From: a virus
Taxonomy: Duplodnaviria; Caudoviricetes
Direction: 5' to 3' (one strand)
Virus record (IMG/VR): IMGVR_UViG_3300030012_002328
Coordinates: 1 to 56,931 of that record
DNA: 56,931 nucleotides
Shown here: positions 1 to 47,677 of the stretch, piece by piece
How positions within the stretch are numbered: the first letter of the stretch is position 1
How the letters are laid out: each line of letters opens with the position of its first letter
Made by a program: the position numbers and the translations under genes
The notes under the pieces: generated by a model
What the model saw: only the letters and a program-made list of their open reading frames with translations
Databases searched by the model: none
What the model was told of the DNA's origin: nothing

Positions 1-101
1 CCAGTCATCTCTTCGATAGCTTCGGCCATCGCATCGAGTCGGCGGGTGGGTATCTCTTTGATGCCATCGTCTGTTGGAATGTAACCGCACAGGATTTGCT
101 G
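1..101. repeat. Terminal overlap, copy 1 (circular closure)
   Basis: 1-101 matches 56831-56931 except position 3 (A vs G). Confidence 0.97.
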
Positions 102-1001
102 CAACCGGAGAAGCTGTGTCATGGCTTGCTGCGCGATAACCAAGTCGTCGTCGAGCACAAGCATGGCAGTCCGCTTCATTGCCATGTAGTGTGTGGTTTG
201 CTCCGGTGTCATTGACACAGTGCGTGTGGTGTACGTCTTCTCCGGAAGGTCGAGGCAATCTTTTTTCAGCACACGGCTCGAGAACCCGCCGACCTTGTCA
301 GCCAGTTCCGGTAGATTGCGATAGCCAACCACGCGGTTGAATGAGTGTGCGCCCATGTTCTGACGCTTCATGATCGCGTACCGAGCTTGGAACGCGTAGA
401 AGTTATCGTACCCCAGAAGCGACTTATCCAAGAAAGCGCACTGCGCGAACAAGTCCATCGGGCTTTGCGTCACGGGTGAGCCAGTCAGGATACGGCGAAA
501 CTCAGCCTGCTCCGCGAGCCGCGTCACAATCTTCGTGCGCTTGGCTTTCGGATTCTTGATGACTGTGGATTCGTCCACCGCGAACATCACGGTCTGGCCT
601 TCCATAAACTTCTGCACGTACTGAACGCACTTGGTGCTGACAAACGCCTCGACGTTCACGACCAGGATTCGAAGACCGTCGTGATACACCAAGCCTTCTT
701 GTAGTTCTTTGCGTTGTGCTTTGTTTGCTTGGCTGCGCCATGTCACGGTCTGGTGCGGAATGTCGTCCGGCAAATGTATCGGCACTTCCTTCAGCACCCA
801 GTTGCGGTACACGCCCTTCGGTGCTACGACTATCAGTGTCGTTATGCGACCCTGTTGATACAGCCAAGCGGCATTGTCGATCAGCACTTTTGATTTACCA
901 CAGCCCATTTCCATGAAGTAGGCAAAGTTGGTTCGAGCGGCGGAGGCATTGAGTGCGTCGCGCTGATGCTGATACGGCTCTGTCTTATATTGATACTGCA
1001 C
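1..1001 (-). CDS. SNF2-family (SF2) helicase, 5' part; continues across the join to 56389 (about 480 aa in total)
   Basis: Read manually: GTG at 1001 with AGGA upstream, MQYQYKTEPYQHQ..., Walker A MEMGCGKS, DESTVIKN, ILTGSPV. In frame with the 56389..56859 ORF. Missing from the ORF track because it crosses the end. Confidence 0.92.
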   Translation of the reverse strand, partial: MQYQYKTEPYQHQRDALNASAARTNFAYFMEMGCGKSKVLIDNAAWLYQQGRITTLIVVAPKGVYRNWVLKEVPIHLPDDIPHQTVTWRSQANKAQRKELQEGLVYHDGLRILVVNVEAFVSTKCVQYVQKFMEGQTVMFAVDESTVIKNPKAKRTKIVTRLAEQAEFRRILTGSPVTQSPMDLFAQCAFLDKSLLGYDNFYAFQARYAIMKRQNMGAHSFNRVVGYRNLPELADKVGGFSSRVLKKDCLDLPEKTYTTRTVSMTPEQTTHYMAMKRTAMLVLDDDLVIAQQAMTQLLRLQQILCGYIPTDDGIKEIPTRRLDAMAEAIEEMT

Positions 1002-1023
1002 AGAAAATCCTAAAAAATAACTA

Positions 1024-1061
1024 CTTGACATGAGATAGCATGGTCTATATACCTAGTCAAG
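1024..1061. promoter_or_regulatory. Overlapping divergent sigma70-like promoters between SNF2 helicase and replication operon
   Basis: TTGACA-17-TATACC on +; TTGACT-17-TATCTC on -. Confidence 0.55.
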
Positions 1062-1096
1062 TCTCTCCTAGAGATGATGTTTATTTTTGAAAAGAC

Positions 1097-1165
1097 GTAG
1101 CGGGGCGGTTTTCTTGGATGGTTAGCTGCCCCGTTACACCCAAAGCCGACGGGCTATAAACGGGA
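1097..1165 (+). promoter_or_regulatory. Structured 5' leader of the replication operon
   Basis: 14-bp stem GTAGCGGGGCGGTT/AGCTGCCCCGTTAC with G-U pairs only on +, followed by a small CCC..GCC-GACG-GGC..GGG element. Confidence 0.5.
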
Positions 1166-1191
1166 ACGTAGAAACTAGAAGGAGTGTCCAA

Positions 1192-1749
1192 ATGAGTGGA
1201 CTTTTCGATGAGATGGAAGCAGACGCGTCAGCGTTTGATGAAGTCAAAACAGAGGCCGGGGCCAAGTTGTCCGACCTCATTCGAGAGGCGCAGCGTCAGT
1301 CTGCGCTTCAAGAAGAACATGAGCAAGGTGCTAAAGATGCCAAGAAAGAGTATCACCGCATCACTCGTGAACTCATCCCCGCAGAAATGGAAGCAATGGG
1401 CTTAGAGCGTGTAGACGTTGATGGTAACTCCATCAGTCTGCAGCAGTTTGTCTATGCGTCCATTCCGGCGACTCGCAAAGAGGAAGCGTATAACTTCCTG
1501 CGGTCTATCGGCGAGGACGATATTATCAAGAACGAAGTAGTCGTGCAGTTTGGCCGAGGCCAAGACAATCAGGCTGGTGCGTTCTTTGATGATTGCAGCC
1601 AACAGGGTCTTGACCCTGCCCAAAAACAATCGATTCATCCGATGACATTGAAGGGCTGGCTGAAAACCCGCATGGAGCAGGGACAGGAAACTGACCTTGA
1701 CCTGTTCGGTGCGTATGTTGGAACCGAAGCGAAGATCAAAAGGAAGTAA
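1192..1749 (+). CDS. Conserved phage replication-module protein, function unknown
   Basis: 185 aa, AAGGAG RBS, N-terminal coiled coil, first gene of the operon. Confidence 0.8.
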   Translation: MSGLFDEMEADASAFDEVKTEAGAKLSDLIREAQRQSALQEEHEQGAKDAKKEYHRITRELIPAEMEAMGLERVDVDGNSISLQQFVYASIPATRKEEAYNFLRSIGEDDIIKNEVVVQFGRGQDNQAGAFFDDCSQQGLDPAQKQSIHPMTLKGWLKTRMEQGQETDLDLFGAYVGTEAKIKRK

Positions 1750-1755
1750 ATCGCT

Positions 1756-2559
1756 ATGAGTGAAACTAAAGAAGTAGCTGTCAAGAAAACGACAGACGTT
1801 GCGTTGCCAGCCGAGATGCTGGGCGCATTCATTGAAGACGCAGGCGCAGGTACTGAAAACATCGGTGCCGATGACATGAAGATTCCGTTCATTCGGGTCA
1901 TTCAATCTGTGTCGCCACAACTGAAGAAGAAGGACGGTGAGCATATCGCAGGCGCAGAGGCTGGTGATGTGTTCAACACAGTCACGAAACAACTTTGGAA
2001 AGGCGAAGACGGGGTCTTGGTTATCCCGTGTGGCTATACAAAGAAGTTCTTGGAGTTCGGCCCGTACGACCAAGGCGGTGGGTTCAAAGGTGAGCTTGCT
2101 CCCAATGACCCGCGTGTCCTCGGTGCGACCCGTGTCGGCAACAAGGATATCTTGGACAACGGTAACGAGTTGGTAACGTCCGCTCAACACTATGTCCAGA
2201 TTCAAGACCCGAGTAACGGGACTTGGCAAACTGCAATCATTGACATGAAGTCGACGAACCTGAAGATTTCGCGTCAGTGGAATACGATGATTTCCATGCA
2301 GCAGGCGCAAGCAAACGGCAAGACCTTCAAGGTTCCGAGCTTCGGTTGCATTTGGAAGTTAGAGACCGATGAGTTCTCGAATGACATGGGTAGCTGGAAC
2401 GCTTGGAAGATTACCGGACGTGAATGCTACGTAGAGGATTCAGAGCTCTACAACTCTTGTAAAGAGTTCAGCAAGATGGTGAGTGAAGGAGAGGTTGCTG
2501 CAGCACCCGATCCGGATTTGGAAGAAGTTAGTACTGACACCAGCGACGCACCGTTCTAA
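1756..2559 (+). CDS. Putative single-stranded DNA-binding/annealing protein
   Basis: 267 aa acidic protein upstream of primase; ends in acidic SSB-type tail EEVSTDTSDAPF. Confidence 0.6.
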   Translation: MSETKEVAVKKTTDVALPAEMLGAFIEDAGAGTENIGADDMKIPFIRVIQSVSPQLKKKDGEHIAGAEAGDVFNTVTKQLWKGEDGVLVIPCGYTKKFLEFGPYDQGGGFKGELAPNDPRVLGATRVGNKDILDNGNELVTSAQHYVQIQDPSNGTWQTAIIDMKSTNLKISRQWNTMISMQQAQANGKTFKVPSFGCIWKLETDEFSNDMGSWNAWKITGRECYVEDSELYNSCKEFSKMVSEGEVAAAPDPDLEEVSTDTSDAPF

Positions 2560-2565
2560 GCTGCC

Positions 2566-2607
2566 GGAGGTGGGAATCTTGGAGAAGGAGTTCCCACCTC
2601 CATTTTT
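2566..2607 (+). terminator. Intrinsic terminator/attenuator between SSB-like gene and primase
   Basis: Stem GGAGGTGGGAA/TTCCCACCTCC followed by ATTTTT. Confidence 0.65.
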
Positions 2608-2615
2608 ACAAGAGG

Positions 2616-4154
2616 TTGCCAATGAATACCATCAAAAGGTTCATGGCTGCTTTCGAAGGATTTGAGACAGCACATGGACAGACTACGATTAAAGGAACAC
2701 GCAAAAACGGCAAAGAAGAAGCTGATAGCCGTGTTATCCGAACTCCGCTCGACGAAACCCACATCAAGAAACATTTCGACGGGACTGTCGGGGCCGGAGC
2801 TATTCCGATTAATTCCACAAATAACTGCCACTTTGGTTGTATCGATGTGGATGTTTACCCACTTGATCATGCTGCTCTTGTTGGGCAGTGCGATGCTCTT
2901 GATTGCCCTGCCATTGTATGCCGCAGCAAGAGTGGTGGAGCGCACATCTATTTCTTCATTGAAGGGTGGATATCTGCAGCGGATATGCGAGACAAGCTAT
3001 CCGAAATTGCTGCTGCTTTGGGCTACGGTTCGGCAGAAATTTTTCCGAAACAAGAAAAACTTTTAGTCGAACGCGGCGACGTAGGGAACTTTATCAACCT
3101 GCCGTACTTCGGTGGTGATCGCACACTGCGTCCTGCATACAACAGCAAGGCGCAAGAACTGTCGCTCGAAGAGTTTCTCGACTTTGTCGATGAGCAGACC
3201 ATTCGGCCTGAGAAGTTTATGGGGCTACAGCTAGGCTCCGAGACAGACTTCCTGCCGGAGTGTCCGCCGTGCTTGGTCAAGCTGACCAACATGGGTATCG
3301 GCGAAGGTAATCGTAACGAGACCATGTTCAATATCGGCGTAATGTATCAGAAGATGGACCCCGACAACTGGCAGGGTTTGCTCGAGCAGCACAACGTGCA
3401 GTACGTCAACCCGCCGCTGCCTGCGTCTGAGATTGTGCAGATACAAGACCAGCTAACCAAGAAGGAGTATCAGTACGGCTGCAAGAAGTCGCCGCTGAAG
3501 GATTACTGTAACAAGTCACTGTGCCTTACAAAGGCGTACGGCGTTGGTAACGGCTCTCTCAGGTCGCTTGAAATCACAGGCATGAGTGTTGTGCTATCGG
3601 AACCACGCGTGTGGTTCGTAGATATCGGCGGCGAACGCTTAGAGTTGACCAGCGAGGACGTGCAAATGCAGTTGAAGTTTGGTCGCGCTTGTCTCGAACA
3701 GCTTGGCTGGCTACCGCCGCGTATGAAAGAGTCTGACTGGACTACTATCATGAACAACGCGCTACAGGACTGCATGAAGATTGAAGTGCCGCCGGAACTG
3801 ACAAACAAAGGCCAGTTCCAAGACTTGCTTGAGTCTTTCTGTTCTGGTCGCGTACAGGCAATGTCTCCGGAAGAACTTATTTTGGGCAAGCCTTACGTCG
3901 AAGAGGGCAAGGTCTTCTTCAAGCTGGATGCTTTGATGGACTTTCTTAAAACCAAAAACTTCAGTCAGTATACACGCGGTCAGGTGCAGGAGCGTCTAAA
4001 AGAACTTAACAACGGCAATTCCTCAAGTGTGACCAAGTCATTTCGAGACAGGGCAGGCAAGACTAAAGCGGTTCGTGTTTGGTCGGTGCCGGAGTTCGAT
4101 CCCGACATGGATATACCCGCTGTTGATATCAAAGGTGAGGAGGTGCCTTTCTAA
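2616..4154 (+). CDS. AEP-superfamily primase(-polymerase) with PriCT-like domain
   Basis: Motif I CIDVD, motif II RSKSGGAHIYF, PriCT-like CPPCL..GEGNRNETMF. Confidence 0.8.
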   Translation: MPMNTIKRFMAAFEGFETAHGQTTIKGTRKNGKEEADSRVIRTPLDETHIKKHFDGTVGAGAIPINSTNNCHFGCIDVDVYPLDHAALVGQCDALDCPAIVCRSKSGGAHIYFFIEGWISAADMRDKLSEIAAALGYGSAEIFPKQEKLLVERGDVGNFINLPYFGGDRTLRPAYNSKAQELSLEEFLDFVDEQTIRPEKFMGLQLGSETDFLPECPPCLVKLTNMGIGEGNRNETMFNIGVMYQKMDPDNWQGLLEQHNVQYVNPPLPASEIVQIQDQLTKKEYQYGCKKSPLKDYCNKSLCLTKAYGVGNGSLRSLEITGMSVVLSEPRVWFVDIGGERLELTSEDVQMQLKFGRACLEQLGWLPPRMKESDWTTIMNNALQDCMKIEVPPELTNKGQFQDLLESFCSGRVQAMSPEELILGKPYVEEGKVFFKLDALMDFLKTKNFSQYTRGQVQERLKELNNGNSSSVTKSFRDRAGKTKAVRVWSVPEFDPDMDIPAVDIKGEEVPF

Positions 4155-5701
4155 TGACAACGACTTCTTATTTCGGTCCGCCGGGCACCGGTAAAACTTT
4201 TACGTTGATGAACATAGTTAGTAACTATTTAGAGCAGGGCAGTGAGCCGGAGCGTATTGGCTTTGTGTCGTTTAGTAAAAAGGCAACAGAAGAAGCACGT
4301 AATCGCGCTGCGTCTGAGTTGAACCTCGACTACAAACGGATGCCGTACTTTCGTACGCTGCACTCATTGGCGTTTCGTCAACTTAGTCTGAAGATTGAAG
4401 ACGTTATGCGTGGTGCAGACTATCGTCGTCTCGAAGAAATGATAGGCATGGAGTTTCTTTCTACCTCGTCGATGTCTCTTAACGACGGCGAGTTCTTCCG
4501 GATGGGCAGCAAGGGCGATATGTATCTTGGTGTCTACAACATGGCGCGGGTGCGTGGCATACCTGTCGAGCAGCAGTTTCATGAGACCGCCAACTTTAGT
4601 TTGCGGCTGAACGAACTTGAGCACATTGTTCGAAGCTACGAAGACTACAAGCAAGCGGCGGAGAAAATTGACTTCACGGATATGATCCGTCTGTTCATCG
4701 AGAACGGTGAGGCCCCGAAGCTGGACGCGCTAATCGTCGATGAGGCGCAAGACCTTGTTCCGTTGCAGTGGCAGATGGTGGACAAGCTTGCACAAAACGC
4801 TAGTGATGTTTTCTACGCCGGAGACGATGACCAAGCCATCTACGAATGGATGGGTGTTAATCCCAAAGACTTCATCGAGCGCAGCATGGACACAGACAAC
4901 CAGTTCACGCTCGGTCAAAGCTTTAGGGTTCCGCAAGAGGTGCATAAGTTTGCTACCAGCATTACGGACTCGATGCACACTCGTATTGATAAGGCTTACG
5001 AGCCGCGTGAAGAACCGGGATCCGTGTCGTATCATTATGATATCGATGAGCTTGATTTACAGAATGGTGAGTGGATGATCCTGTGCCGGACAAACTATAT
5101 CGCCAATAAGCTGGCGGGTCAGTTGAAAACAATGGGTCATTTGTTCTGGCGGACTGGTAACGGCTGGAGCGTATCAAGTCGCACACTTAACGCTGTGCGG
5201 AACTGGACTAAGCTGACACGTGGTGAGTCTCTGGGCTTATCCGAGTTTCAAGAACTTTGGACTATGCTGAAGATTGACCGGTACAAGAAACGTGCAGGCA
5301 ATAAGAAGATTAAAGAAGCTCCGAAGGGCGACATGCTTGAAGACGCACGTGACACATTCGACATGAACTTTGTTACGGATATTCTGGGCGAGGATGTACG
5401 AGAAAAAATCTGGTACGAGATTTTAGATGTTCAAGCAAAGGAACGTGTGTATATTACTAGTGTATTGGAATCTGGTGAAAAATTTGACGACGACAATCCC
5501 CGTATTGTTCTGTCTACTATTCATAAGGCAAAGGGCGGCGAGGCCGACAACGTCGCTTTGTTTCTTCAATCATCGAAAGCTTGTTGCACGATGGGTGACC
5601 CAGATTGCGAGAGGCGTGTGTTCTATGTGGGGGCAACACGCGCCAAACAAAACTTGCATATTATTGAGTCCCGCGATGCACGATGGAGCTTTCGTATATG
5701 A
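4154..5701 (+). CDS. UvrD/Rep-like SF1 DNA helicase
   Basis: GPPGTGKT, DEAQD, GDDDQAIY, STIHKAKGGEAD, YVGATRAK. Confidence 0.93.
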   Translation: MTTTSYFGPPGTGKTFTLMNIVSNYLEQGSEPERIGFVSFSKKATEEARNRAASELNLDYKRMPYFRTLHSLAFRQLSLKIEDVMRGADYRRLEEMIGMEFLSTSSMSLNDGEFFRMGSKGDMYLGVYNMARVRGIPVEQQFHETANFSLRLNELEHIVRSYEDYKQAAEKIDFTDMIRLFIENGEAPKLDALIVDEAQDLVPLQWQMVDKLAQNASDVFYAGDDDQAIYEWMGVNPKDFIERSMDTDNQFTLGQSFRVPQEVHKFATSITDSMHTRIDKAYEPREEPGSVSYHYDIDELDLQNGEWMILCRTNYIANKLAGQLKTMGHLFWRTGNGWSVSSRTLNAVRNWTKLTRGESLGLSEFQELWTMLKIDRYKKRAGNKKIKEAPKGDMLEDARDTFDMNFVTDILGEDVREKIWYEILDVQAKERVYITSVLESGEKFDDDNPRIVLSTIHKAKGGEADNVALFLQSSKACCTMGDPDCERRVFYVGATRAKQNLHIIESRDARWSFRI

Positions 5702-7656
5702 AGAAGACTGACCAACTCTCTTTCGCAGCCCGTATGACTTCGGCATTACCGGATGAAGATATCCGTGAAGTGGCTACAGTTTCTCTTGATCAAGACTGGA
5801 CACCACCGTCTATCTTCCCCGATCACTACAAAGACGCGGACATAATCTCGATTGACTTGGAGACCCGAGATCCGAGTCTCATGCAGCTTGGACCAGGTTG
5901 GTGCCGAGACGATGGATACATTGTGGGCTTCGCTGTAGCGTTCAATGACTTCGTTGGATACTACCCTATCCGGCACGAGGGCGGTGGTAACCTGCCTGAG
6001 AAAGCAGTTATGAGCTACATTAAAGACATGATGGAGTGCGATGTGCCGAAGGTCATGCACAACGCTCAATATGACTTGGGCTGGCTGCGGTGGGCAGGAA
6101 TAAAGGTAAACGGTAAAGTATACGACACAATGACTGCCGCTGCAGTATTGAATGAAAACCGAAGGTGGTACAATCTAGATGGTTTGGCTCGTGAATATTT
6201 GTCTGAGAGCAAGAATGAGCGGCTTCTCCGGTTGGCTGCGGCTGACTACGGCGTGGATCCCAAAGCAGATATGTGGCGGCTACCGTCTCGGTTTGTTGGA
6301 ACATATGCCGAACAGGACGCTGCGGTTACACGCCGCCTGTGGGAGAGGCTCAAGACTGATATACTTAAAGAAGAAGTCTCCAACATATTCGAACTCGAGA
6401 CAGCCCTGACTCCGATGCTCTTGGAGATGCGCTGGCGCGGTGTACGGGTCGACGAAGAAGGCGCGGAGCGAGCACAGGGACAGCTTGAGGCTCGTGAGAA
6501 AGAAATACTGAAAGCAATCAAGGACGAGACAGGTGTTTGGGTAGAGCCGTGGAATGCCAACTCTATCGCCACTGTGTTCGACAGTCTTGATCTTAGCTAC
6601 CCACGCACAGAAAAAACTGACGCACCGTCATTTACTAAACAGTTCTTGGCGGCACACGAACACCCGACAGCCAAGCAAATTGTGCGGCTGCGCGAACTGA
6701 ACAAAGCGAGTACAACCTTTATTAGAAACATTCTAAAGTTCTCTAATAACGGCAGGATACACGCAGAATTTCATCCTCTTCGTTCAGATGAGGGTGGAAC
6801 GGTCACGGGGCGGTTTAGCTCCTCTAACCCCAACTTACAGCAAATACCGGCTCGTGACCCAGAAATTAAGTCGCTTATTCGTGGTTTGTTCCTACCGGAA
6901 GAAGGTGAGAAGTGGGGCAGCTTTGACTACGCGTCACAAGAACCTCGTTGGTTGGCACACTATTGTGCCTCCATCACTGGCGTACACCGTCACCCCAGTA
7001 TCGACGAAGTGGTAGAACGGTACAAAGCAGATAACGCGGACTTCCACCAGATGGTAGCTGACATGGCTGGCATCTCTCGTAAAGATGCCAAGACTGTGAA
7101 CTTGGGTATCATGTACGGTATGGGCGTGAATAAGATGGCTGGTGTCTTGGATACCACAGTGCAAGAGGCTAAAGAACTTTTGTCGGAGTATCACAACCGC
7201 GTTCCCTTCGTGAAGGGTCTGGCTACAATGGTGTCCAACCACGCCAATGAGTCTGGCATCATTCGCACAGTCAAAGGCCGTAAGTGTCGGTTCGATATGT
7301 GGGAGCCCAAGACGTTTGGTGTCCACAAGCCGCTGCCTTTGGAGCAAGCGCAAAAAGAATATGGTGGGCGTGGTTCTATCAAACGTGCGTTTACTTACAA
7401 GGCTTTGAATCGACTGATTCAAGGTTCGAGTGCCGATCAAACAAAGCAGGCTATGCTGGATTGTTATGACGCTGGGCATCTGCCCATGTTACAAGTGCAT
7501 GATGAACTGTGTTTCAGCATTGATGCAGACGAGCGCGGCAACCCTGATAAGAAACAAATCAAAGAGATTGCTGAGATTATGGAAAACTGTGTCGAGGCAA
7601 AAGTACCCTTCAAGGTTGACTGCGCGGTTGCAGACAACTGGGGGCAAGTAGACTAG
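5698..7656 (+). CDS. polA: Family A DNA polymerase with 3'-5' exonuclease (Leu762 type)
   Basis: ExoI DLET, ExoII HNAQYD, ExoIII YAEQD; motif A DYASQEPR, motif B RKDAKTVNLGIMYG, motif C VHDE. Start moved to the ATGA overlap with the helicase stop. Confidence 0.96.
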   Translation: MKKTDQLSFAARMTSALPDEDIREVATVSLDQDWTPPSIFPDHYKDADIISIDLETRDPSLMQLGPGWCRDDGYIVGFAVAFNDFVGYYPIRHEGGGNLPEKAVMSYIKDMMECDVPKVMHNAQYDLGWLRWAGIKVNGKVYDTMTAAAVLNENRRWYNLDGLAREYLSESKNERLLRLAAADYGVDPKADMWRLPSRFVGTYAEQDAAVTRRLWERLKTDILKEEVSNIFELETALTPMLLEMRWRGVRVDEEGAERAQGQLEAREKEILKAIKDETGVWVEPWNANSIATVFDSLDLSYPRTEKTDAPSFTKQFLAAHEHPTAKQIVRLRELNKASTTFIRNILKFSNNGRIHAEFHPLRSDEGGTVTGRFSSSNPNLQQIPARDPEIKSLIRGLFLPEEGEKWGSFDYASQEPRWLAHYCASITGVHRHPSIDEVVERYKADNADFHQMVADMAGISRKDAKTVNLGIMYGMGVNKMAGVLDTTVQEAKELLSEYHNRVPFVKGLATMVSNHANESGIIRTVKGRKCRFDMWEPKTFGVHKPLPLEQAQKEYGGRGSIKRAFTYKALNRLIQGSSADQTKQAMLDCYDAGHLPMLQVHDELCFSIDADERGNPDKKQIKEIAEIMENCVEAKVPFKVDCAVADNWGQVD

Positions 7657-7665
7657 GAGACTACA

Positions 7666-8103
7666 ATGGCTAAAGACCAAATCATTTATCATGTAGAAAA
7701 ATGTTACCTCTATCACTTGTTTGTCTACAAGCCGGTGCAGCCTTTCTACAAAGGCAATCAATCCAAAGATTTTCGTGTAATAATGGACCCGGTCAAGAAG
7801 TTCGAAGGCCACTATGAAGGTGGCGGCTCGGGATGCCAAGACGTTCCCGTAAGTCTAAACGCTCGATACTTTCGATACCCACTAGGGTTACGGACAGTGA
7901 CAGGGCATGGCATTGGTTTCGTGCCAGAGTATCCAGACTTCGAGATGCCTGTAAACTTCGTCGGTATCCGCCTGTTGTTTGGCTGGGAAATATTTGTAAG
8001 TCATACCTTCAACATCGCCCCAACGATTAGCGGTAAGCGAAAGTGGGGTATTCAAGTTACGTTGCACCGTATTCGAAAAGAAGTCATACCGGCTGCTGAA
8101 TGA
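7666..8103 (+). CDS. Hypothetical protein
   Basis: 145 aa, AGGAG RBS, coupled to the next gene. Confidence 0.7.
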   Translation: MAKDQIIYHVEKCYLYHLFVYKPVQPFYKGNQSKDFRVIMDPVKKFEGHYEGGGSGCQDVPVSLNARYFRYPLGLRTVTGHGIGFVPEYPDFEMPVNFVGIRLLFGWEIFVSHTFNIAPTISGKRKWGIQVTLHRIRKEVIPAAE

Positions 8104-8579
8104 TTATCATTGACGACTTCTTGCCTTCTCATTTAACAGGAACCATAGAGCCTGTTACGAAAGATATTCAATGGTGGGATGGGGTGACAAGAACAGAAGC
8201 CGCTCACGATGTTATAGCCTACTGTCGAGATTACTTTAACCTGAATGGTTTTTGCGGTTTTGAGTACTGGTACAATGTAACAACACCCGAGCCTCCGTAT
8301 CCTAATTGGCATAGAGACAAGGACGAAGGTAGCGAAGAAGTCATACTCGCTGACTGGGCTTGTATACTTTACCTGACACCCCATAACTTGTGGGGCGGGT
8401 TTTTAGAACTAGAGACAGCCGACATAACTAGGACAGAGGTAGAGCGTGTAGCTCCGCGTTTCAACAGATGCGTGATCCTAGATCCGGGTGTCTGGCACCG
8501 CGTCTCAAGGGTTTGGTCTGGAAAGCGTCACGCTTTCTTGATAAACGGCTGGGTGAACCCACCTACTGCAGCGGGTTAG
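8100..8579 (+). CDS. 2OG-Fe(II) oxygenase
   Basis: HxD (WHRD), GG-x-L, distal H (WHRV) and R (KRHAF). Confidence 0.8.
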   Translation: MIIIDDFLPSHLTGTIEPVTKDIQWWDGVTRTEAAHDVIAYCRDYFNLNGFCGFEYWYNVTTPEPPYPNWHRDKDEGSEEVILADWACILYLTPHNLWGGFLELETADITRTEVERVAPRFNRCVILDPGVWHRVSRVWSGKRHAFLINGWVNPPTAAG

Positions 8580-8970
8580 ACAGAGCGTCTAGCCCCTTCC
8601 AGATATCATCAATTTCACGGTTGATTTTCTTGAAGCGACCACCAATGCCGTCCACTTTTTCTTTGAACTGTTGAACCAGTAAATCGTTCTCGACGGTTGT
8701 CTTCTCTACCTCGGCAATCCGGTCACGCAGATCGAGCAACTGCTTTTGGTTTTCCATAATCGTTTCGAGGTTCGTGCCGAGCACTGTTAGCTTTTCTGCT
8801 GTGTCACCATTGCCAGCGACTGCGGCCTCCACAGACTCGATCCGCCCGTAAAACTCCGCGACTGCCCATATACCGCCAGCTAGGGTAGTGCCGATAGACA
8901 ATACGATTGCAATCCATACGCCACGAAGCTTCGTGCCGCCGATTGTTAGTTCGGTTTCTTCTAGGCTCAT
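8563..8970 (-). CDS. Membrane-anchored coiled-coil protein
   Basis: N-terminal hydrophobic helix (VWIAIVLSIGTTLAGGIWAV) then heptad-rich region. Confidence 0.75.
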   Translation of the reverse strand: MSLEETELTIGGTKLRGVWIAIVLSIGTTLAGGIWAVAEFYGRIESVEAAVAGNGDTAEKLTVLGTNLETIMENQKQLLDLRDRIAEVEKTTVENDLLVQQFKEKVDGIGGRFKKINREIDDIWKGLDALSNPLQ

Positions 8971-9761
8971 TGATACATGTAGGCTTGCTGGTCGGCATAA
9001 ATTGCCTCACCCTCACCCAACACATCAGCAGCAGAAACATAGTCGCCAGTCAGGAAGTCATGAAACGATATGTTGCCAATGTTGGTTGTCCATTCAACAC
9101 TCAGTATGTCGTTGGTAGCGGAATAGGAGATAGATGCCTCGGCCATAGACTGACCATAATCTTGTGCGTGTTCGTCTGAGATACTGGTCAGTGCTTCGTT
9201 CTTCGACGCAGCCAAGAATGCGCCAGCGTCACGGGCATTGACCGCAATCTCTTCTAGCGACTGGTTATATTCGGCCACGGTCTCTTGTTTGATTTCTACA
9301 TCGTTGACTTCGATGAACTCTTGGACTGCTATTTGATCCTCAACACTGTTCGTCTCTTGTGCGACTTCGGCTACCTCGGCAACCTCCTCTACCATGCTGA
9401 GTTGAACACTCGCGACAACAAAGTTGTCTACAGCTTCGGAAACCTTGACCATTGACTCTTCATACTTCTCTTCAAGAGCCATTTGAGTTGTGTAATACAA
9501 TGCGTTACGTACACCTTCCAACGCGTCTTGGTACGCAGCAATGTCGCCATCGTTGATTATGTATTGCTCATCGTCCACAGCATTATAGTCGATGATGCCA
9601 CCAACGCTGGCGTAGTGTTCTGCGCCATAGACTGCGTAACGGCCTTGCTCAAGCTTCGCTGCAATCGTCCGGCTGGCGTTGACTAGGTTATCAATCGTCG
9701 TCTCGGAGTGTGCTGCGGAAACGCTCAGAAATGCTGAGATTAGAATCGCTGCCTTCTTCAT
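8967..9761 (-). CDS. Exported acidic protein with signal peptide
   Basis: Start reassigned to MKKAAILISAFLSVSAAHS (AAGGA RBS); 264 aa. Confidence 0.75.
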   Translation of the reverse strand: MKKAAILISAFLSVSAAHSETTIDNLVNASRTIAAKLEQGRYAVYGAEHYASVGGIIDYNAVDDEQYIINDGDIAAYQDALEGVRNALYYTTQMALEEKYEESMVKVSEAVDNFVVASVQLSMVEEVAEVAEVAQETNSVEDQIAVQEFIEVNDVEIKQETVAEYNQSLEEIAVNARDAGAFLAASKNEALTSISDEHAQDYGQSMAEASISYSATNDILSVEWTTNIGNISFHDFLTGDYVSAADVLGEGEAIYADQQAYMYQ

Positions 9762-10323
9762 CGGTTTCTTCCTTACCAATCTGTAATATCTTATCATACC
9801 ACGCCTTGCGCTTTTTGTAATCTGGGATAAACATCTCTGGGTCTCTTTTCATAAGAACAGTCGCAGCACGTCCCACAACTAATCGGCCATTTACAGCCAT
9901 CGGGCATGGTGTCCCAGAATCGAACATTGCTTTCCATGTCTCCAGCGATTGACACAAACGCGCCACCGCTGCGATGGACATGCCTTGTTCTTTGAGTGCT
10001 TTGGAGTCTCGTCGTCGATTACACTCTTCGTCTTGCTTATACCCGCCTAGCGACAGGCCAAGCACGTTTACTTGAACACCCATACCACGTCCGATCAGAC
10101 ATGACTCGGTGCCGCCCGACGGTGCGCTGGGCGATACCGCCGTTGGCGGTGGGGTAACGTCAGAAGCTGCGCCAGCACCGTTGTAATTATTGGTGGTCGA
10201 TGTTGACGGGTTGTTGCTGCTTACCGTGCTGTTTATGTTGCTTGTGTTAAGATCGCCTGTCTGTTCGTTTTGCGCCAGAACTGGTGAGGACACAAGCAAC
10301 AAAACGAAAAGCAATCGTTTCAT
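9691..10323 (-). CDS. Exported Cys-containing protein with signal peptide
   Basis: MKRLLFVLLLVSSPVLA signal, Ser/Thr/Asn linker, four Cys. Confidence 0.8.
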   Translation of the reverse strand: MKRLLFVLLLVSSPVLAQNEQTGDLNTSNINSTVSSNNPSTSTTNNYNGAGAASDVTPPPTAVSPSAPSGGTESCLIGRGMGVQVNVLGLSLGGYKQDEECNRRRDSKALKEQGMSIAAVARLCQSLETWKAMFDSGTPCPMAVNGRLVVGRAATVLMKRDPEMFIPDYKKRKAWYDKILQIGKEETDEEGSDSNLSISERFRSTLRDDD

Positions 10324-10360
10324 TACACTATCCTTTGGCGAGTACCTAACTCGTTGGAGG

Positions 10361-10370
10361 ATTATAACAT
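10361..10370 (-). promoter_or_regulatory. Extended -10 promoter for the exported-protein cassette
   Basis: TGTTATAAT about 40 nt upstream of the 10323 start. Confidence 0.5.
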
Positions 10371-10374
10371 AATT

Positions 10375-10725
10375 TTAGTTTGGTTTCTCGTTCGTTACGT
10401 CCATGAACAAGAGCTCTGGGTCCGGTGCTTCGTCGTCTCGTGAGAGAACTTGGATACGTTGAACTGTTGTAGGCTTTTCGTTGTCTTCTTCTTCAGTAAG
10501 CTTACGAGCAAAGGACATCCAAGCCGTCATGGATGCAGACACTGCTTCTGACATAACAAGAGGATCGCTGCAGAACAGCAAGGAACGGATACCGTAATTT
10601 ACCAAGACGGTAGAAAGCTCTGTTTGTATTTCTGGAAACGAGTCTTTGTAGGCTTCGAACAGATCGTCCAAATCCTTAACAAGTTCCTGTTCGGCTTCGA
10701 GCCGTTCTCTTGCATCTTCAGTCAT
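10375..10725 (-). CDS. Hypothetical acidic protein
   Basis: 116 aa ORF; TAGACT six nt before ATG suggests a possible leaderless transcript. Confidence 0.7.
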   Translation of the reverse strand: MTEDARERLEAEQELVKDLDDLFEAYKDSFPEIQTELSTVLVNYGIRSLLFCSDPLVMSEAVSASMTAWMSFARKLTEEEDNEKPTTVQRIQVLSRDDEAPDPELLFMDVTNEKPN

Positions 10726-10783
10726 GCTTACAGTCTACGTCTTGTTCAGCGCACACCACAACCCTTGAATATATGAGATAAAG

Positions 10784-10846
10784 TGGTGGGACCAAAAAGA
10801 GGGAGGAAAGGAGGTCAGTTGCGTAACCAAGTATCGGCCCCACCAT
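10784..10846 (-). ncRNA. Candidate small RNA with anti-Shine-Dalgarno loop
   Basis: TATAAT at 10857-10852; 12-bp closing stem with two G-U pairs on the minus strand; loop contains ACCUCCUUUCCUCCC. Confidence 0.55.
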
Positions 10847-10863
10847 CTAAAATTATATACAAA

Positions 10864-11295
10864 TCACCCATAAAGTAAAGGACGAATCGCCTTTTCCCAC
10901 GTCTCTTGTGTGATTCTGTAGTCCTCGAAAAGGTGCGCTCTCACTTTGTGTGTTTTCTTTTTAATCAACTGCTTGGCTGGGTAGAACATAATTGACCCAT
11001 CATCAAGACCAACACAGGCAATGATATCAATCTCGTGTTCTTCGAACCGCCGCTTGACCTTTGAGCCGCGACAGACGTTGAAGCCGTAATAAGGTTTAGG
11101 ATTTTCGTATCGTGAGTCGTAAGTTCGATGAGCGGTCTTAACCTGAATACGAAGAACAACATCGTCATTAATAATCGCCACGATATCCGTAGCACCAAGA
11201 TTCACGATCCGGCAAGGAACGCCCATTTCAAGGAGTCGGTAGTGGCAGAGGGCCTCACCGATGTCTCCAGTGTGGATCTCGGTGGAGCTTGTCAT
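10864..11295 (-). CDS. PD-(D/E)XK endonuclease (free-standing, homing-like)
   Basis: GDIGE...DIV...RIQVKT signature. Confidence 0.75.
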   Translation of the reverse strand: MTSSTEIHTGDIGEALCHYRLLEMGVPCRIVNLGATDIVAIINDDVVLRIQVKTAHRTYDSRYENPKPYYGFNVCRGSKVKRRFEEHEIDIIACVGLDDGSIMFYPAKQLIKKKTHKVRAHLFEDYRITQETWEKAIRPLLYG

Positions 11296-11298
11296 TGT

Positions 11299-11751
11299 TT
11301 AGATGAGGCCCGGTTCGTAACTGCTGCCGTCGTATCGTAGGACTTGTCCACGATTGTCATCATCGGCGCGGACGCTGCAATGCACCCAGCCGCTTTGCGG
11401 ATCTTCCGGATCATAGAACTCTAGGATCAGTTGATCGAACTCAAGGTTCTGGCTGATCCAAGCTGCGAGTTCATAGTTTGACACACCGGGTACCTCGAAG
11501 TCTGCGGCTTGACCCCTGGCATGTTGACTACGCTTGCTGCTGCCGATTGCTTCGCACAACGCTTCAGAGCGATAACCTGATGACGGGCTGAAGCTGCGTC
11601 CAAAGTGGGTTCGTACCGGTTCTAATATCTCAGTACACAGGACGCACAGATTGTTGATGTGGTCTTCTGTTGGTGCGTTGTCGATTCCCAGACGTAGTGC
11701 AGTTTGGCTCTTCGTCATTTCTCGAAGAGTGAAATGCTGTGATAGTCTCAT
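11299..11751 (-). CDS. Endolysin, peptidase M15A family
   Basis: SSGYRS, SQH-x6-D (SQHARGQAAD), WVHCS. Confidence 0.9.
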   Translation of the reverse strand: MRLSQHFTLREMTKSQTALRLGIDNAPTEDHINNLCVLCTEILEPVRTHFGRSFSPSSGYRSEALCEAIGSSKRSQHARGQAADFEVPGVSNYELAAWISQNLEFDQLILEFYDPEDPQSGWVHCSVRADDDNRGQVLRYDGSSYEPGLI

Positions 11752-33885: not shown

Positions 33886-33907
33886 CCAGACTTGCGTAAG
33901 CCTAACC

Positions 33908-40175: not shown

Positions 40176-42596
40176 TTAACTACGCTTTTTGTTCATCTCA
40201 CGCATGACAGCGATATCTTCTTGCGTTTCGATGCGCTCGCGGTTAACGGCGTTGCGTTCTTCAGCAATATTCATTGTTGCTGCCAAACGCTGTTGAGCAA
40301 GATCTGACTGCTGGTCAAGGCGAGCCTGCTCCAGCATTGCGTCCACTTGATCTTTTGCCATCTTACGCTGTTGATCCTGCGCTTGCAACTGTACTTCGGC
40401 TTGTCGGATACCGACCAACGGATCTTGTTGCTGCGGGGCAAAAGACGGAATAATCTGCTGTGACAATTCTGCAACACGTTGAGCGACCATTGCCTCCATC
40501 ATTTCCGGCGGCATCATCTGTCCTGTCTGGGCTGCTTGACCAGCAACCTCTTCACGAGCCAAGAAACCGATACGCTGCTGAATATTTGCCATCAACGGGC
40601 CAAGCAAGTTGGGTGCGCCTTGTATCATCGGAGATTGGATGAATGTAATGTGCGATTGAATATGAGCCATGTGATTCTGGCCGGGGAATGCTTGAATAGG
40701 CTTACCATCCAAAACCAACGCCTGTTCCATAGCTGGGTCAACCGGCTGCGGTTGAGGCGGTGCTGGCAACAATGCTTCGATGTTTTTAACTTCCAAAGCT
40801 TCGTACATACGGCGGTAAGCTTCCTGAAGATTGTGGATTTCCGGATTGCTTTGTGCCATTTGAAGCTGAGTTTGTGCCAAGCTCAAACGCTGTGCCATTG
40901 AGAAGATGTTCGGGTCAGAGACCGGCATCACATCTACACGACCATCAAAGTCAGATTGCAGAATCTCCGCGCCGACAGATGTGGCATACGGATACGCATC
41001 GACAGTATCAGCAATGATACTAGCCAGCAGACGGAACTCTTGACGCTGTGCGTAGTGCATCCGTTTGTGGATCGCACTCATCACGCGAGACCCGCGCTCC
41101 AGTAGAGCAACAGTCGTGCCTACCGGAGCTTGGGTGTTCACATCGCCAACGGCGTTATCTGCAATCGCTGCATAGCGGCGACCACTGTCAACAATCACGC
41201 CGAGCAGTTGACCCAACGTACCCGACGGTTCTTTATATGGCAGCGGGACAATAGCGTTACGCAGATCCCCGCCCGGAGCATCGATATCACGGAACTCGCC
41301 CGGATTGAGCGGCTCGTCATCATTACGAATCCGAACGCCACGTGCCTTGAATCCTGCCGGGAGGTTGGACAGCGTTCCCGCATCGATTAGCTGACGCAGA
41401 ATCGATGTAGCGGCACGGGAGAGTCCTCCAATCATATGGATGAGACCGAATCCATAGAAACCCAAACCCGGCAGGAACTTGTAGTGGACAAAGGTCTGCA
41501 TCGGCTTGCGCTGCGGATCTTCTTCGTCCCAGTTACGGACAACAGATAGGATAGTGCCGCTATCCTTTTCCATTGTGACAACGTACGGAAGTTTCAGTCC
41601 CGTAGGTTCGCCGTCCATGTCCGTGTCCTCAAACCCTTCCAAGTCTAGGTATGTCTGAATTTCCAGAATGGTGTAAACATCATCGCCGGTTGCTGAAGGA
41701 CGTACGCCTTGCAACTGGTCTTTTTTATCTTGCAGGTCGCTATCTTCGCTATGACCAGCAGATACAAGATCCACGTCGCGGTAAATGGTAGCCAACTGCA
41801 TTTTGACAATGTCATTGTCCGACATGCTCATCACGTGTGTGATTCGCTCGGCTGTTCGAATGTCCGTAGCGTAGTATGGAACAACTACATCCTCGGCTGG
41901 AACAAACTTAGCCACAGGGCGTTGACGCGCCATGTCGAAGTAAACTTTTTTGAACGTTGAACCACTGAGCGGCAGATGGAACAACATCTGATCCATATCC
42001 GGATCATACTCTTCCATCACTTCCGTAATTTGATAATTCATAAACTGCTCGACGCGCTGCGCCTGCTGCATAACTTCAGGAGTCTCGTTGCCAATGCAGA
42101 CAGTCCGTACAGGACCACCCGCTGGTAACATTTCCTTGTATGCTTGTGCTTGAAACTGGGTCACCGACTCTGAGATTAGAGGGTGTGTGACTCCGGTTGC
42201 CCCGGCGAACGGCTCGTCACGATCTTCATAGTTGATACCCAGTAGGCCGAGACCTTTTGTTAAGGCTTCCTCCCACTCTGACCTCGACTCAAGGTCGTCC
42301 TCAAACGAACTACCAAGCTCCGAGGAAAGCTCCCCCAAAATACTGTCGTCTAGGATTTCGGCGAGGTTAGCCGTGTGGCTGTACTCTTCCGCCAAGACCT
42401 CTGTTGGATCTTCCATGAACTCGGCAGAGCCGTCTTCGTTCATCTGAAGAACCAAGTCTTCCATAGCTTCGTCGGTGATACCGGGGACTTGGCCCTCGAT
42501 TTCAATCAGTGCTTCGGTAGCAGGATCTAGCGCGGGGCCACCGGCACCCATCGCTTCCTCAATCTGACCACCAAAAGGATTTCCTGTTTGTGACAT
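40176..42596 (-). CDS. Portal protein
   Basis: 806 aa; SRSEWE, FQAQAYKE, GSTFKKVY, PGLGFYGFG, APVGTT; Gln-rich barrel tail. Confidence 0.88.
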   Translation of the reverse strand: MSQTGNPFGGQIEEAMGAGGPALDPATEALIEIEGQVPGITDEAMEDLVLQMNEDGSAEFMEDPTEVLAEEYSHTANLAEILDDSILGELSSELGSSFEDDLESRSEWEEALTKGLGLLGINYEDRDEPFAGATGVTHPLISESVTQFQAQAYKEMLPAGGPVRTVCIGNETPEVMQQAQRVEQFMNYQITEVMEEYDPDMDQMLFHLPLSGSTFKKVYFDMARQRPVAKFVPAEDVVVPYYATDIRTAERITHVMSMSDNDIVKMQLATIYRDVDLVSAGHSEDSDLQDKKDQLQGVRPSATGDDVYTILEIQTYLDLEGFEDTDMDGEPTGLKLPYVVTMEKDSGTILSVVRNWDEEDPQRKPMQTFVHYKFLPGLGFYGFGLIHMIGGLSRAATSILRQLIDAGTLSNLPAGFKARGVRIRNDDEPLNPGEFRDIDAPGGDLRNAIVPLPYKEPSGTLGQLLGVIVDSGRRYAAIADNAVGDVNTQAPVGTTVALLERGSRVMSAIHKRMHYAQRQEFRLLASIIADTVDAYPYATSVGAEILQSDFDGRVDVMPVSDPNIFSMAQRLSLAQTQLQMAQSNPEIHNLQEAYRRMYEALEVKNIEALLPAPPQPQPVDPAMEQALVLDGKPIQAFPGQNHMAHIQSHITFIQSPMIQGAPNLLGPLMANIQQRIGFLAREEVAGQAAQTGQMMPPEMMEAMVAQRVAELSQQIIPSFAPQQQDPLVGIRQAEVQLQAQDQQRKMAKDQVDAMLEQARLDQQSDLAQQRLAATMNIAEERNAVNRERIETQEDIAVMREMNKKRS

Positions 42597-42602
42597 AACT
42601 AC

Positions 42603-45299
42603 TTATAACACCTCTTTACCCATAGAGCCAATGCCTTTCATGACCAAGCCACCTTTCGCAAAGGACGCTGGTGGTATCTCCGCACGGTTACCACGTGCGC
42701 GAGCAAATGAAAATCCGAACGGCTTGCGAGGCTCGTCGCTCTCGTTGAAATATTCTGCAGCTTTTCTTCTAGATGCCGGTAACTCTGAATTTGTTGAATT
42801 GATCGGAAGATCCGTAACAACACGAGAACCGGGGTTCATCGATTTATGTTCGTTCAAACGCTTCTTAATAGTGTTGTTATACATAGCTCGGAACTTGTTA
42901 CTGGCTTTTTTGTATGCTTCCACTTCAACTTCCGGAGTGTTGGAGTCAGGAGCCCTGAAACGAAGATCACGAATATCACGCCAGTCAGGGAAAATAACGC
43001 CGCTTAGACCACGAGCACGAGACCGCTCAATCATGGAGTCCACAACAAAGCGTACAAAATCAGCTTCATCTTCGAAAACAAACTGGGGTACTTTTTGCTT
43101 GTTCCTCAAAGCTGCAAACTCTGGGTTATCCGCCGCGAAGTCAATTTCGTACTGATCTATCGCTTTCTGTGCTTCTTGAACTTTTTTAGTTAAAGGCTCA
43201 AGTTCCTTCCGTGCTTTGGACAAGCCACGTGCCGCAGTGTTTGCTTTTTTGCGAGCCAGTTCATAGTTACTAACCGTTATTCTGTTTGTTTCTTTCTCCA
43301 CAGCGCTCAAGCCTAGCTGATCGACAGGAAGACCTGACTCCTCAGAACGATTCAACAGAGCCTGAGCTTCTTCCTCTAGGCCAGACTCTATGGCGGTTGC
43401 ACTCTCCAAGTCTTCGGCAAGAACACTTACTTTTCGCCTAGCATCACTAGCGAAAGAACGAGCTGTAGCCAGCGCATCATCCAGAGGCTTCAAGCCTCGC
43501 AGTCTTTCTGCACTCCCCTCATCAAAAATACGCGTCTTCTCTGGTGTCATCTCAATGACCCTACCAGTGTTATCCAAACGAGACTGTGCAGCTTCAATGT
43601 TAACCTGAGAGTCGATGATATTAAATGTCTTATCCCTAAAAGCTTTGACCTTGGCGCTGACTTCAGGAGCTCTGTTCAACTGACGGATATACGAGTTGAT
43701 CTCGTCATCTCCGTAGTCGTCCGTATCTCTTAATGTTTGAACCAAGTTGCTATAAGCCACAGAGTCAACGCTCCTGTCAGACTGCACATAGTCAACCGCA
43801 CGATCCAAAATTTCCATCATGTCTCGGTCCATGTCGGAAGGATCTTCAAATAATACTGGCTGGGCTGCACCGGCGAACCTAAAACGGCGAAACAACGCAA
43901 GGCGAGCAGCATCAGCAAAATCATCCGCACCCGGCTCGAACTCAACAGGCAGATACTGCGCCAGATCGTTCATGGTAACGTCGTTGTCAATAAACAACTC
44001 GTTCATATCAGCAATACGCCCACGCCCCAAATTTTGTTGACGGCTTAAATTTTGCTGGGCAGCAACTGCCTGACCCTCAAGATCACGAAGGTTGAAATCA
44101 AAATCAGTTTGAATCTCTTCAGACAAAAATGCACCGTCCGGAAACAATTCATTCATCGTCGGGTCTTCAAACTCAGTCAAAACAGAACCACGGAAGTGAC
44201 CCTGCTGATCCAACATACCCTCAGTCCCACCAGCAGTTTTTACGCCACCATAGTGAGTCGAGCCACCGTTAAAACCACCTAGACCCGGGCGGTTGTCGTT
44301 AACCAGCATCTCTTCGTAATCAACAACGTTATATTCAGAAGTAGCCTTGCTCGTATCACGCGGCATATGTGTCCACCGCTGGTAGGTCTTGAACTCCATC
44401 TCTTCAGCACTGTCAGCAGAACGAACAACCGAGATCCGAGGTGTGAACTTCTCGGATGCCTCACGAAGCTGCTTGAGACTGACTTGCTTGTTTTGCTTCA
44501 GTAGATCCTCGATACCTGTAACTTGGATTTCGTTATCAGACACACCCATGCGTTTGAGGGAGTTGCGAACCCTGTTCGAATTAATCGGCTTATCAACCTT
44601 AATCTTGTCGCCACCACCCATAAGAAACGAGTCTTCGTTGAACAAAGCATTACGAAGCTTGGACTTGTATCTGGTAAACGCACCTGTCTGCTCACCGCCA
44701 ACCAAATCAGCTAAATCAGAACCGTCACCATGAGAGTGGCTCAGAAAAGACTCTTCAGCAAATTCCGCACGGCCACGACTTCCCGAACCACGCTCAGCGC
44801 GAGCAGCAACCACAGCCTCTCTAGCCGAATCCGATAATACAGGTTCTTGCAACGTGGTTGTGGTGGCATCCTCCAAAGCTTTCGAAAAATCAGATTTTGG
44901 CATAAGGGACCCGAGACCACGCGAAATAGCAGAACCCGCTTTTTTAATACCGCGACTAGCTATACGGAAAGGAGCACCCAGTCCCAAGATACTTGCACCG
45001 ACCCCAGCACCAGTCAGGAAACCTGGATCTTGTTCGTAGTCACCAAGAGCTAGGGCCGTGCCACCTGAAGCTGCAAGATCAGCCGGACGGATCAAGGGTT
45101 GGTTCTCGAGCATTGTAAGACCCTGTTGACGAGCCACTTCACGAGCCGTAAACGGATCCATACCTTCAGCTACAAGTTGCTCGATCAAAGCAACGCCAGC
45201 GTCTTCCAAAGCAGTGGACTGACGTGGTTCTAGTCTGTCCTGAAGCGGATCAAGGCGGAAGGTCGCCACTCCTTGAAACATGGGATCTTGATTAGACAT
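42603..45299 (-). CDS. Large uncharacterised protein between TerL and portal (probably virion-delivered)
   Basis: 898 aa; HY..GHFR..EEIQTD motif, coiled coil, C-terminal FAKGGLV. Confidence 0.7.
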   Translation of the reverse strand: MSNQDPMFQGVATFRLDPLQDRLEPRQSTALEDAGVALIEQLVAEGMDPFTAREVARQQGLTMLENQPLIRPADLAASGGTALALGDYEQDPGFLTGAGVGASILGLGAPFRIASRGIKKAGSAISRGLGSLMPKSDFSKALEDATTTTLQEPVLSDSAREAVVAARAERGSGSRGRAEFAEESFLSHSHGDGSDLADLVGGEQTGAFTRYKSKLRNALFNEDSFLMGGGDKIKVDKPINSNRVRNSLKRMGVSDNEIQVTGIEDLLKQNKQVSLKQLREASEKFTPRISVVRSADSAEEMEFKTYQRWTHMPRDTSKATSEYNVVDYEEMLVNDNRPGLGGFNGGSTHYGGVKTAGGTEGMLDQQGHFRGSVLTEFEDPTMNELFPDGAFLSEEIQTDFDFNLRDLEGQAVAAQQNLSRQQNLGRGRIADMNELFIDNDVTMNDLAQYLPVEFEPGADDFADAARLALFRRFRFAGAAQPVLFEDPSDMDRDMMEILDRAVDYVQSDRSVDSVAYSNLVQTLRDTDDYGDDEINSYIRQLNRAPEVSAKVKAFRDKTFNIIDSQVNIEAAQSRLDNTGRVIEMTPEKTRIFDEGSAERLRGLKPLDDALATARSFASDARRKVSVLAEDLESATAIESGLEEEAQALLNRSEESGLPVDQLGLSAVEKETNRITVSNYELARKKANTAARGLSKARKELEPLTKKVQEAQKAIDQYEIDFAADNPEFAALRNKQKVPQFVFEDEADFVRFVVDSMIERSRARGLSGVIFPDWRDIRDLRFRAPDSNTPEVEVEAYKKASNKFRAMYNNTIKKRLNEHKSMNPGSRVVTDLPINSTNSELPASRRKAAEYFNESDEPRKPFGFSFARARGNRAEIPPASFAKGGLVMKGIGSMGKEVL

Positions 45300-46783: not shown

Positions 46784-46996
46784 AGGCCGAATGATATTAT
46801 TTCTGAATGAATTTATCAATCTAACATAGTACATACGTACTCGCTTCGCTCGTACTCTATATATGGGGGGCCCCGGGGGCGCAAACGCAAAAGAAAACCC
46901 GACCCCTAGAGCAGTAACCCCAAGAGCCGGGCCGCGCCGCGCTGGTGTATTCAGCGTTGCGGCGGATGCAGACGCGGCTTGCGCCGCGCCTACTAT

Positions 46997-47624: not shown

Positions 47625-47677
47625 GAGATTTCCTTTCCTTCCTCATTTGGTTAGCGTTATTGCTTAACCATGTCTTA

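Follow-up and report, generated by a model that had tools for sequence, protein, structure and literature searches.

Stem-loops at the very 5' end stabilise some bacterial and phage mRNAs, the E. coli ompA leader being an example, and a stem near the 5' end is of the kind that protects bacterial mRNAs from 5'-end-dependent decay. To our knowledge, none of the described examples of such stabilisers carries a long pyrimidine strand. In the Firmicutes, small RNAs with C-rich loops (RoxS/RsaE and the hairpins of RNAIII) present unpaired C-rich words that pair with G-rich ribosome sites. RoxS/RsaE and RNAIII are conserved genes with terminators of their own.

Two further systems come close. The cuckoo/alpha-r14 small RNAs of Alphaproteobacteria include RSs0680a-d (CcsR1-4), SmelC397, and others, and the family is defined by two to four adjacent hairpins, each with CCUCCUCCC in the loop (PMC4615179). 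The PeSL cassettes (promoter-early stem-loops) of T4-type phages are described as about 50 conserved copies per genome, in which the stem usually lies between or over the promoter boxes and which end in a Shine-Dalgarno (SD) sequence and a start codon (PMC2839356).

Here, we describe a structured intergenic element in the genome of an uncultured marine phage. The window, i.e., the whole stretch of DNA that was analysed, is a complete-rated IMG/VR virus record of 56,931 bp. If transcription starts 6–8 nt after TATAAT, the element would share with the 5'-terminal stabilisers a stable stem that begins within 1–2 nt of the 5' end of a long leader RNA. Its likeness to the PeSLs consists of a σ70-like promoter and a stem-loop at an indel-variable intergenic junction of about 100 nt that adjoins genes of unknown function (PMC2839356). 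Unlike the PeSLs, the element is single-copy, its stem follows the −10 box, and the gene downstream has no SD sequence. The element also resembles the cuckoo/alpha-r14 RNAs in that a hairpin exposes an unpaired anti-SD-like pyrimidine motif for which occlusion of a ribosome site is proposed (PMC4615179). However, it departs from them in having one outer hairpin and a small inner one instead of two to four adjacent hairpins, and in lacking CCUCCUCCC, in place of which its run reads CCUCCUUUCCUCCCUC (CCUCC-UUU-CCUCCC) and forms one side of a 38-nt branched loop. It also departs from them in having no terminator hairpin, no conservation, and no match to an Rfam model. To the C-rich-loop RNAs of the Firmicutes it shows no sequence or Rfam similarity.

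The phage and the genomic context of the element

Marine DNA runs from seven studies (2014 to 2025) contain the phage. No RNA run is among those listed with the stretch, and two metatranscriptome contig sets from samples whose DNA includes the phage (X21 and X24) give no contig across it; neither finding speaks for or against expression. Its large terminase is 59–60% identical to those of the Pelagibacter phages HTVC027P and HTVC023P and of phage DSL-LC04. The genes on the plus strand run from 48162 to the end of the window and then from 1 to 8579, and include those of a primase, a UvrD-like helicase, and a family-A DNA polymerase. The late block occupies the minus strand from 47624 down to 8563. 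The phage uses σ70-type promoters.

Table 1 Coordinates of the element, its predicted partner, and the late-block genes in the window
Feature	Position	Strand	Remarks
−35-like hexamer TTTACT	10874..10879	−	Within the final codons of the PD-(D/E)XK gene
−10 hexamer TATAAT, perfect	10852..10857	−	16 nt from TTTACT
12-bp stem, 5' arm (UGGUGGGGCCGA)	10834..10845	−	From the fold and the hairpin scan
12-bp stem, 3' arm (UUGGUCCCACCA)	10784..10795	−	Followed by the weak U-containing tail CUUUAUCUCAUAUAUU
Inner 5-bp hairpin GGUUA-CGCAAC-UGACC	10813..10828	−	In the MFE and centroid folds; kept in longer folds
Unpaired 17-nt C/U strand (UCCUUUCCUCCCUCUUU)	10796..10812	−	In the MFE and centroid folds
42-codon ORF	10718..10846	−	Starts at the predicted transcription start; stop overlaps the p116 start (ATGACTGA)
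Stretch of about 88 nt with the −10 box and hairpin	10776..10863	−	No counterpart in L001 or L089; boundaries approximate
PD-(D/E)XK-like nuclease gene, 143 aa	10864..11295	−	Upstream of the element
M15 endolysin gene	11299-11751	−	Precedes the PD-(D/E)XK-like gene
p116, 116-aa gene	10375..10725	−	Downstream of the element; no SD sequence
Purine-rich ribosome site (GAGGAAGGAAAGGA) of 47328-47624	47631..47644	−	Best predicted partner, 13/14 pairs with 10812-10799
Large terminase gene	45299-46834	−	Next after the first two late-block genes, which are small
SU10-type portal gene	40176-42596	−	Late block
Structural genes after the portal gene		−	Late block; one product of 1540 aa

The element lies at the far end of the late block, in a gap with the nuclease gene on one side, p116 on the other, and the endolysin gene nearby. 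The four distal late genes are p116, p210 and p276 (both with a signal peptide), and p135 (with a transmembrane segment and a coiled coil). The genes p210 and p276 (window 8563-10323) overlap by 107 nt, and their homologues in the related locus L001 likewise overlap. In p135, an N-terminal membrane segment precedes the coiled coil, and weak PHROG hits point to the hemolysin (XhlA-like) family. Together, p210, p276, and p135 may make up a module for lysis or for the envelope. Within the p210 coding region, at 10236-10301, two arms separated by 42 nt (TGTTGCTTGTGT ... ACACAAGCAACA) form a perfect 12-bp inverted repeat, which is present on both strands.

Most genes of the phage have an SD sequence. 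The start of p116 lacks one in all three syntenic phages (window 10725; L001 about 2544; L089 about 3031), and in all three a TTG-type box can be seen by eye about 35 nt before the ATG, which might give rise to a leaderless message. A conserved leaderless promoter directly upstream of p116 was considered and rejected, as the promoter scan calls nothing on the gene strand in L001 and L089.

At the other end of the late block, the gene 47328-47624 (98 aa, minus strand) heads the packaging and structural genes, two genes upstream of the large terminase. Its product is an orphan with no Pfam or PHROG family, and a homologue is found in none of four related genomes and in no viral contig. Its ribosome site is an unusually long purine stretch. 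In the divergent early/late control region, ATAAGATAAYATGGGAT occurs as two direct copies 66 nt apart (47766-47750 and 47700-47684, minus strand). Each copy is interlaced with σ70-like boxes (TATAAT at 47772-47767; TTGACT at 47706-47701, then TATATA), and the copies look like operator sites for a phage regulator. Another operator-like array lies in a gap of the early region at 51139-51174 (plus strand), where TGTAAACAC occurs twice in direct and once in inverted orientation within 36 nt. Canonical intrinsic terminators are present at 33887 (minus), 48008 (plus), 48644 (plus), and 2566 (plus), with stems of at least 12 bp, loops of 4–12 nt, and T runs; the terminator stem at 2566 holds CACCUCC.

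Sequence and fold of the element

The gap spans 10726-10863 and is 138 nt long, as the sequence-only reading had stated. That reading had also placed a TATAAT about 6 nt before a 12-bp stem on the minus strand. Both are present at this spacing, and a −35-like TTTACT can be added to them (Table 1); in the promoter scan, the TTTACT-16-TATAAT pair matches at 10 of 12 positions. Judging from the usual σ70 spacing, transcription would start at A10846 to G10844, 6–8 nt downstream of the −10 box. The stem contains two G-U pairs, which had been described as fitting the minus strand only, and the hairpin scan likewise finds it on that strand alone; it begins at 10845 and not at 10846. It starts 18 nt past the stop codon of the nuclease gene.

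The loop, taken to be 21 nt long in the sequence-only reading, is in fact 38 nt long; within it, a 5-bp inner hairpin forms and a C/U strand of 17 nt stays unpaired. This strand belongs to a 21-nt pyrimidine run (10814-10794) in the 3' part of the loop, in which CCUCC occurs twice. The minimum free energy of the fold is −23.8 kcal/mol (z = −3.4), a value at which one of 200 shuffled sequences folds as well, and the hairpin persists in folds of 151 or 158 nt. The terminator scan calls no intrinsic terminator at the element, where the stem is adequate, the loop 38 nt long, and the U run interrupted. Rfam gives no match at the gathering score for the whole window and none at E values up to 10 for 10600-11000, and no tRNA is found.

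The features of the element differ in how far they exceed chance. The pyrimidine run is the only C/T run of at least 15 nt with CCTCC in 541,873 bases (the window plus the related loci, both strands). Purine or pyrimidine tracts of at least 13 nt number 14, and the element's tract alone is pyrimidine on the mRNA strand, the other 13 being purine. Hairpins of at least 12 bp are also in excess (11 in the window versus a mean of 4.85 in 20 shuffles). By their coordinates, about six or seven of the 11 are intergenic versus about 0.6 expected, given a mean of 4.85 per shuffle and a non-coding share of about 12% of the window. Therefore, an intergenic hairpin of the element's size is probably not due to chance. 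Most of the intergenic hairpins of at least 12 bp are plain terminators. The promoter match alone is not significant: sites with at least 10 of 12 matches number 12 in the window and 9.8 in shuffles, and two of the 12 are intergenic.

A lineage-specific insertion at a variable junction

With the neighbouring p210 as the query, 80 related viral loci were found, among which the gene order around p210 is mosaic. The sequence-only reading had looked to conservation in relatives. None is seen: the element is absent from 81 related loci, in none of which there is a stretch resembling the gap, and has no match in five near-complete related genomes. The order endolysin–nuclease–p116 is common to only two distinct relatives, L001 and L089 (L001, L031, and L088 are counted as one record, L031 being the same IMG/VR contig and L088 giving identical tblastn figures). 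The element is absent from both, and there is no hairpin at their junction. The scan also finds no promoter-like site on the gene strand at the junction in L001 or L089, indicating that an internal promoter is not a conserved need. Because the element is missing from every relative found, conservation fails as support, and there is no homologue in which covarying pairs could be counted.

The junction gap varies in length (L001, 45 nt; L089, about 107 nt; window, 138 nt), and only the approximately 45 nt adjoining the p116 start can be aligned across all three phages. In L089, the gap is taken up by three tandem 20-nt units (about 2925-2990) that duplicate the end of the nuclease gene.

The exact stem pattern has no hit in viral contigs; three hits in genome contigs (about two expected) were discarded, as they lie in unrelated high-GC or coding-like contexts and have no C/U loop. 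The viral, metagenome, and genome collections searched contain no further copy of the element. For the loop 17-mer, there are three unrelated hits, one of which (in L003) is a ribosome site on the other strand. Within the window, the loop is single-copy at up to three mismatches, the stem matches at chance level, and blastn-short of the gap returns only itself. A blastn search with 10300-11400 gives no match in the GenBank phage collection. Since neither the relatives nor the pattern scans contain a copy, the −10 box and hairpin represent an insertion of about 88 nt that is private to this lineage and sits at an indel-prone junction. A MITE-like origin was also considered, as the arms, when extended by eye, match at 18 of 26 positions and have TATAT ends, and was rejected, there being no second copy anywhere. 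As for the gene downstream, the 116-aa protein as a query finds no relative in viral contigs; weak p116 homologues with 25–46% identity are detected by tblastn in loci fetched with other queries.

A strain about 98% identical to the window is represented by an 852-nt contig from another study. It carries 17 differences, none of them within 10784-10857, and no indel or joint. At about 2% divergence, however, zero changes across 74 nt have a chance of about one in five; the unchanged element in this strain is therefore no proof of constraint.

Predicted pairing with ribosome sites

The sequence-only reading had noted perfect nine-nucleotide complements of the loop in the ribosome sites of two genes that it took to be early. 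Both complements are present (GGAGGAAAG before 51568 on the plus strand and AGGAAAGGA before 47624), but complements of this length are at chance level, seven being found outside the element versus about 5.6 expected (13 words × 2 × 56,931 / 4^9). That ribosome sites account for three of the seven follows from the loop word being SD-complementary. The ORF at 51568 is indeed a small plus-strand gene of the early region, whereas 47328-47624 heads the late block.

We calculated duplex energies of the 21-nt loop with 70 ribosome sites. The energies track those of a generic anti-SD word (r = 0.79), indicating that most of the apparent targets only reflect SD strength. The site of 47328-47624 is an outlier, with −22.3 kcal/mol versus −7.7 kcal/mol for the generic word and 13 of 14 positions paired, a stronger match than the sequence-only reading had noticed; the site before 51568, its other proposed target, is not an outlier. 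An energy of −22.3 kcal/mol is reached by 15 of 1000 composition-preserving loop shuffles against any of the 70 sites, and by 6 of 1000 against the 47328-47624 site alone, but shuffled loops lose the CCUCC words, so that the resulting 1.5% overstates the significance. When both RNAs are folded, the net dimer gain is −11.3 kcal/mol for 47328-47624 versus −4.7 kcal/mol for the next best site, with a median of 0. Genome-wide, the 14-nt match to this site has a blastn E value of 4.1.

The loop had also been read as a likeness of the 16S rRNA 3' tail pointing to alphaproteobacteria. Tails of the type ...CACCUCCUUUC(U) are reported across many phyla, including those of Bacilli, Neisseria, Campylobacter, Deinococcus, and others (PMC5427494, PMC6288834). 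The 16S likeness of the loop is thus generic and is not a pointer to Alphaproteobacteria.

A candidate promoter and leader hairpin for the distal late genes

We tentatively prefer a cis-acting role, in which the element would serve the distal late genes as a promoter with a 5' leader hairpin, or else as an intercistronic hairpin. The σ70-like TTTACT-16-TATAAT would start transcription at about 10846-10844, and the RNA would fold into the 12-bp hairpin 1–2 nt from its 5' end. Because there is no U-tract terminator and the tail is U-poor, the RNA would continue into p116, for which it would provide a leader of about 120 nt. The 5'-proximal stem may then stabilise the mRNA by protecting it from 5'-end-dependent decay. 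If the promoter were silent, the late transcript would read through the same hairpin, which would then lie between two cistrons. This scheme assigns no role to the exposed C/U strand.

Several observations favour the cis-acting role. The promoter-like site lies 6 nt before a stable stem, the hairpin forms only on the gene strand, and the canonical short-loop, T-run terminators of the phage (33887, 48008, and 48644) are unlike it. Against the cis-acting role, promoter matches of this score are no more frequent in the genome than chance would give (12 versus 9.8), L001 and L089 do without a promoter at the junction, and the most unusual feature of the element, the pyrimidine run with two CCUCC, is left unexplained.

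Alternative explanations

It is possible, though we consider it rather unlikely, that the element is a functionless lineage-specific insertion, either a recombination scar or the remnant of an inverted ribosome site and gene start, with a promoter and stem that are fortuitous or left over. The junction differs in all three syntenic phages, and the promoter score gives no reason to assume more than chance. Read on the plus strand, the run has the form of a strong ribosome site with TTG behind it, and the exact 17-mer in L003 is a ribosome site for a gene on the other strand. Since the other 13 long tracts are purine on the mRNA strand, the element's tract looks inverted. In addition, the plus strand of the gap matches the leader of 47624 at 19 of 22 positions, a match reached by 2 of 500 shuffles but not significant genome-wide (E = 4.1). 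However, an inverted duplication of the whole late leader can be rejected, because the alignment loses its significance on extension (34 of 500 shuffles). Moreover, the stem exactly brackets the run and its G-U pairs fit the gene strand only; a 12-bp stem of this kind is improbable by chance in a 138-nt gap, for which an estimate from 4.85 hairpins per genome gives about 0.012. The element is also unchanged and undeleted in runs of other studies.

The exceptional pairing with the 47328-47624 site bears on a trans-acting small RNA, free-standing or cut from the leader, whose CCUCC strand would block translation of 47328-47624. Besides the pairing and the net dimer gain, the stable hairpin 6 nt after a promoter-like site, the C/U strand left unpaired in both the MFE and the centroid fold, and the run's uniqueness in 542 kb of related sequence are in accordance with such an RNA, and both the element and its 98-aa target gene are lineage-specific. 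However, no canonical terminator is present, so that an RNA of exactly 62 nt could arise only by processing. None of the relatives has the element, which leaves neither conservation nor covariation, and Rfam has no match. The shuffle figure overstates the significance, the genome-wide E value is 4.1, and the best partner is a late gene and not, as first proposed, an early one. We consider this RNA unlikely. The same doubt attaches to its fuller form, a recently acquired antisense regulator with its own promoter or derived from the leader, by which expression at the lysis end of the genome would, late in infection, act back on translation of the first late-operon gene. The 19/22 likeness between gap and leader suggests that such a regulator might descend from an inverted copy of the very site it targets.

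Still less credible is a leaky, non-canonical terminator, or a hairpin protecting the 3' end, of the endolysin/nuclease transcript, by which expression of the distal genes would be lowered. The short distance from the nuclease stop codon to the stem (18 nt) would suit this role, as would the GC-rich stem base followed by CUUUAUCU, with five U in 8 nt, and the fact that most other intergenic hairpins of similar size are terminators. However, the phage's own terminators have 4–6-nt loops and long T runs, from which the 38-nt branched loop and the short, interrupted U run of the element differ, and the scan makes no call. Relatives with equal gene order are also without a hairpin at the junction. 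An RNase III site, a rut site, and an S1-binding enhancer were considered on the basis of the element's anatomy and are not counted among the alternatives.

A small protein is very improbable, whether a leaderless hydrophobic peptide of 42 aa (10846-10718), coupled to p116 by ATGACTGA and with Leu, Ser, Phe, and Pro simply encoded by the C/U run, or a 19-aa peptide of the plus strand. An ATG at 10846, 6 nt after TATAAT, a stop codon overlapping the SD-less p116 start, and, for the shorter peptide, a plus-strand GGAGG with TTG 4 nt later are set against a start codon buried by the 12-bp stem, the lack of a homologue among proteins of 23–74 aa and of a PHROG family for the 42-codon ORF, and a hydropathy of 1.67 that is ordinary, as the 90th percentile for 128 random small ORFs of the window is 1.77. 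The p116 gene is also SD-less in L001 and L089, which are without the 42-codon ORF, and the 19-aa peptide has no plus-strand promoter discernible by eye and opposes the whole late block.

Implications

From its sequence and fold, the solitary structured element is real, and the likeliest of the explanations is a recently acquired cis-acting promoter and leader hairpin. An anti-SD small RNA is unlikely; neither conservation, nor a terminator, nor a transcript supports it. If the cis-acting role is correct, the element would show, as is not unusual, that a phage has gained a promoter and a leader hairpin at a mosaic junction, and would be of use for annotation but hardly beyond. If instead it acts in trans, it would be a phage riboregulator of very recent origin, confined to one lineage and directed at the late operon of the phage itself, and would offer a rare chance to watch the origin of such an RNA.
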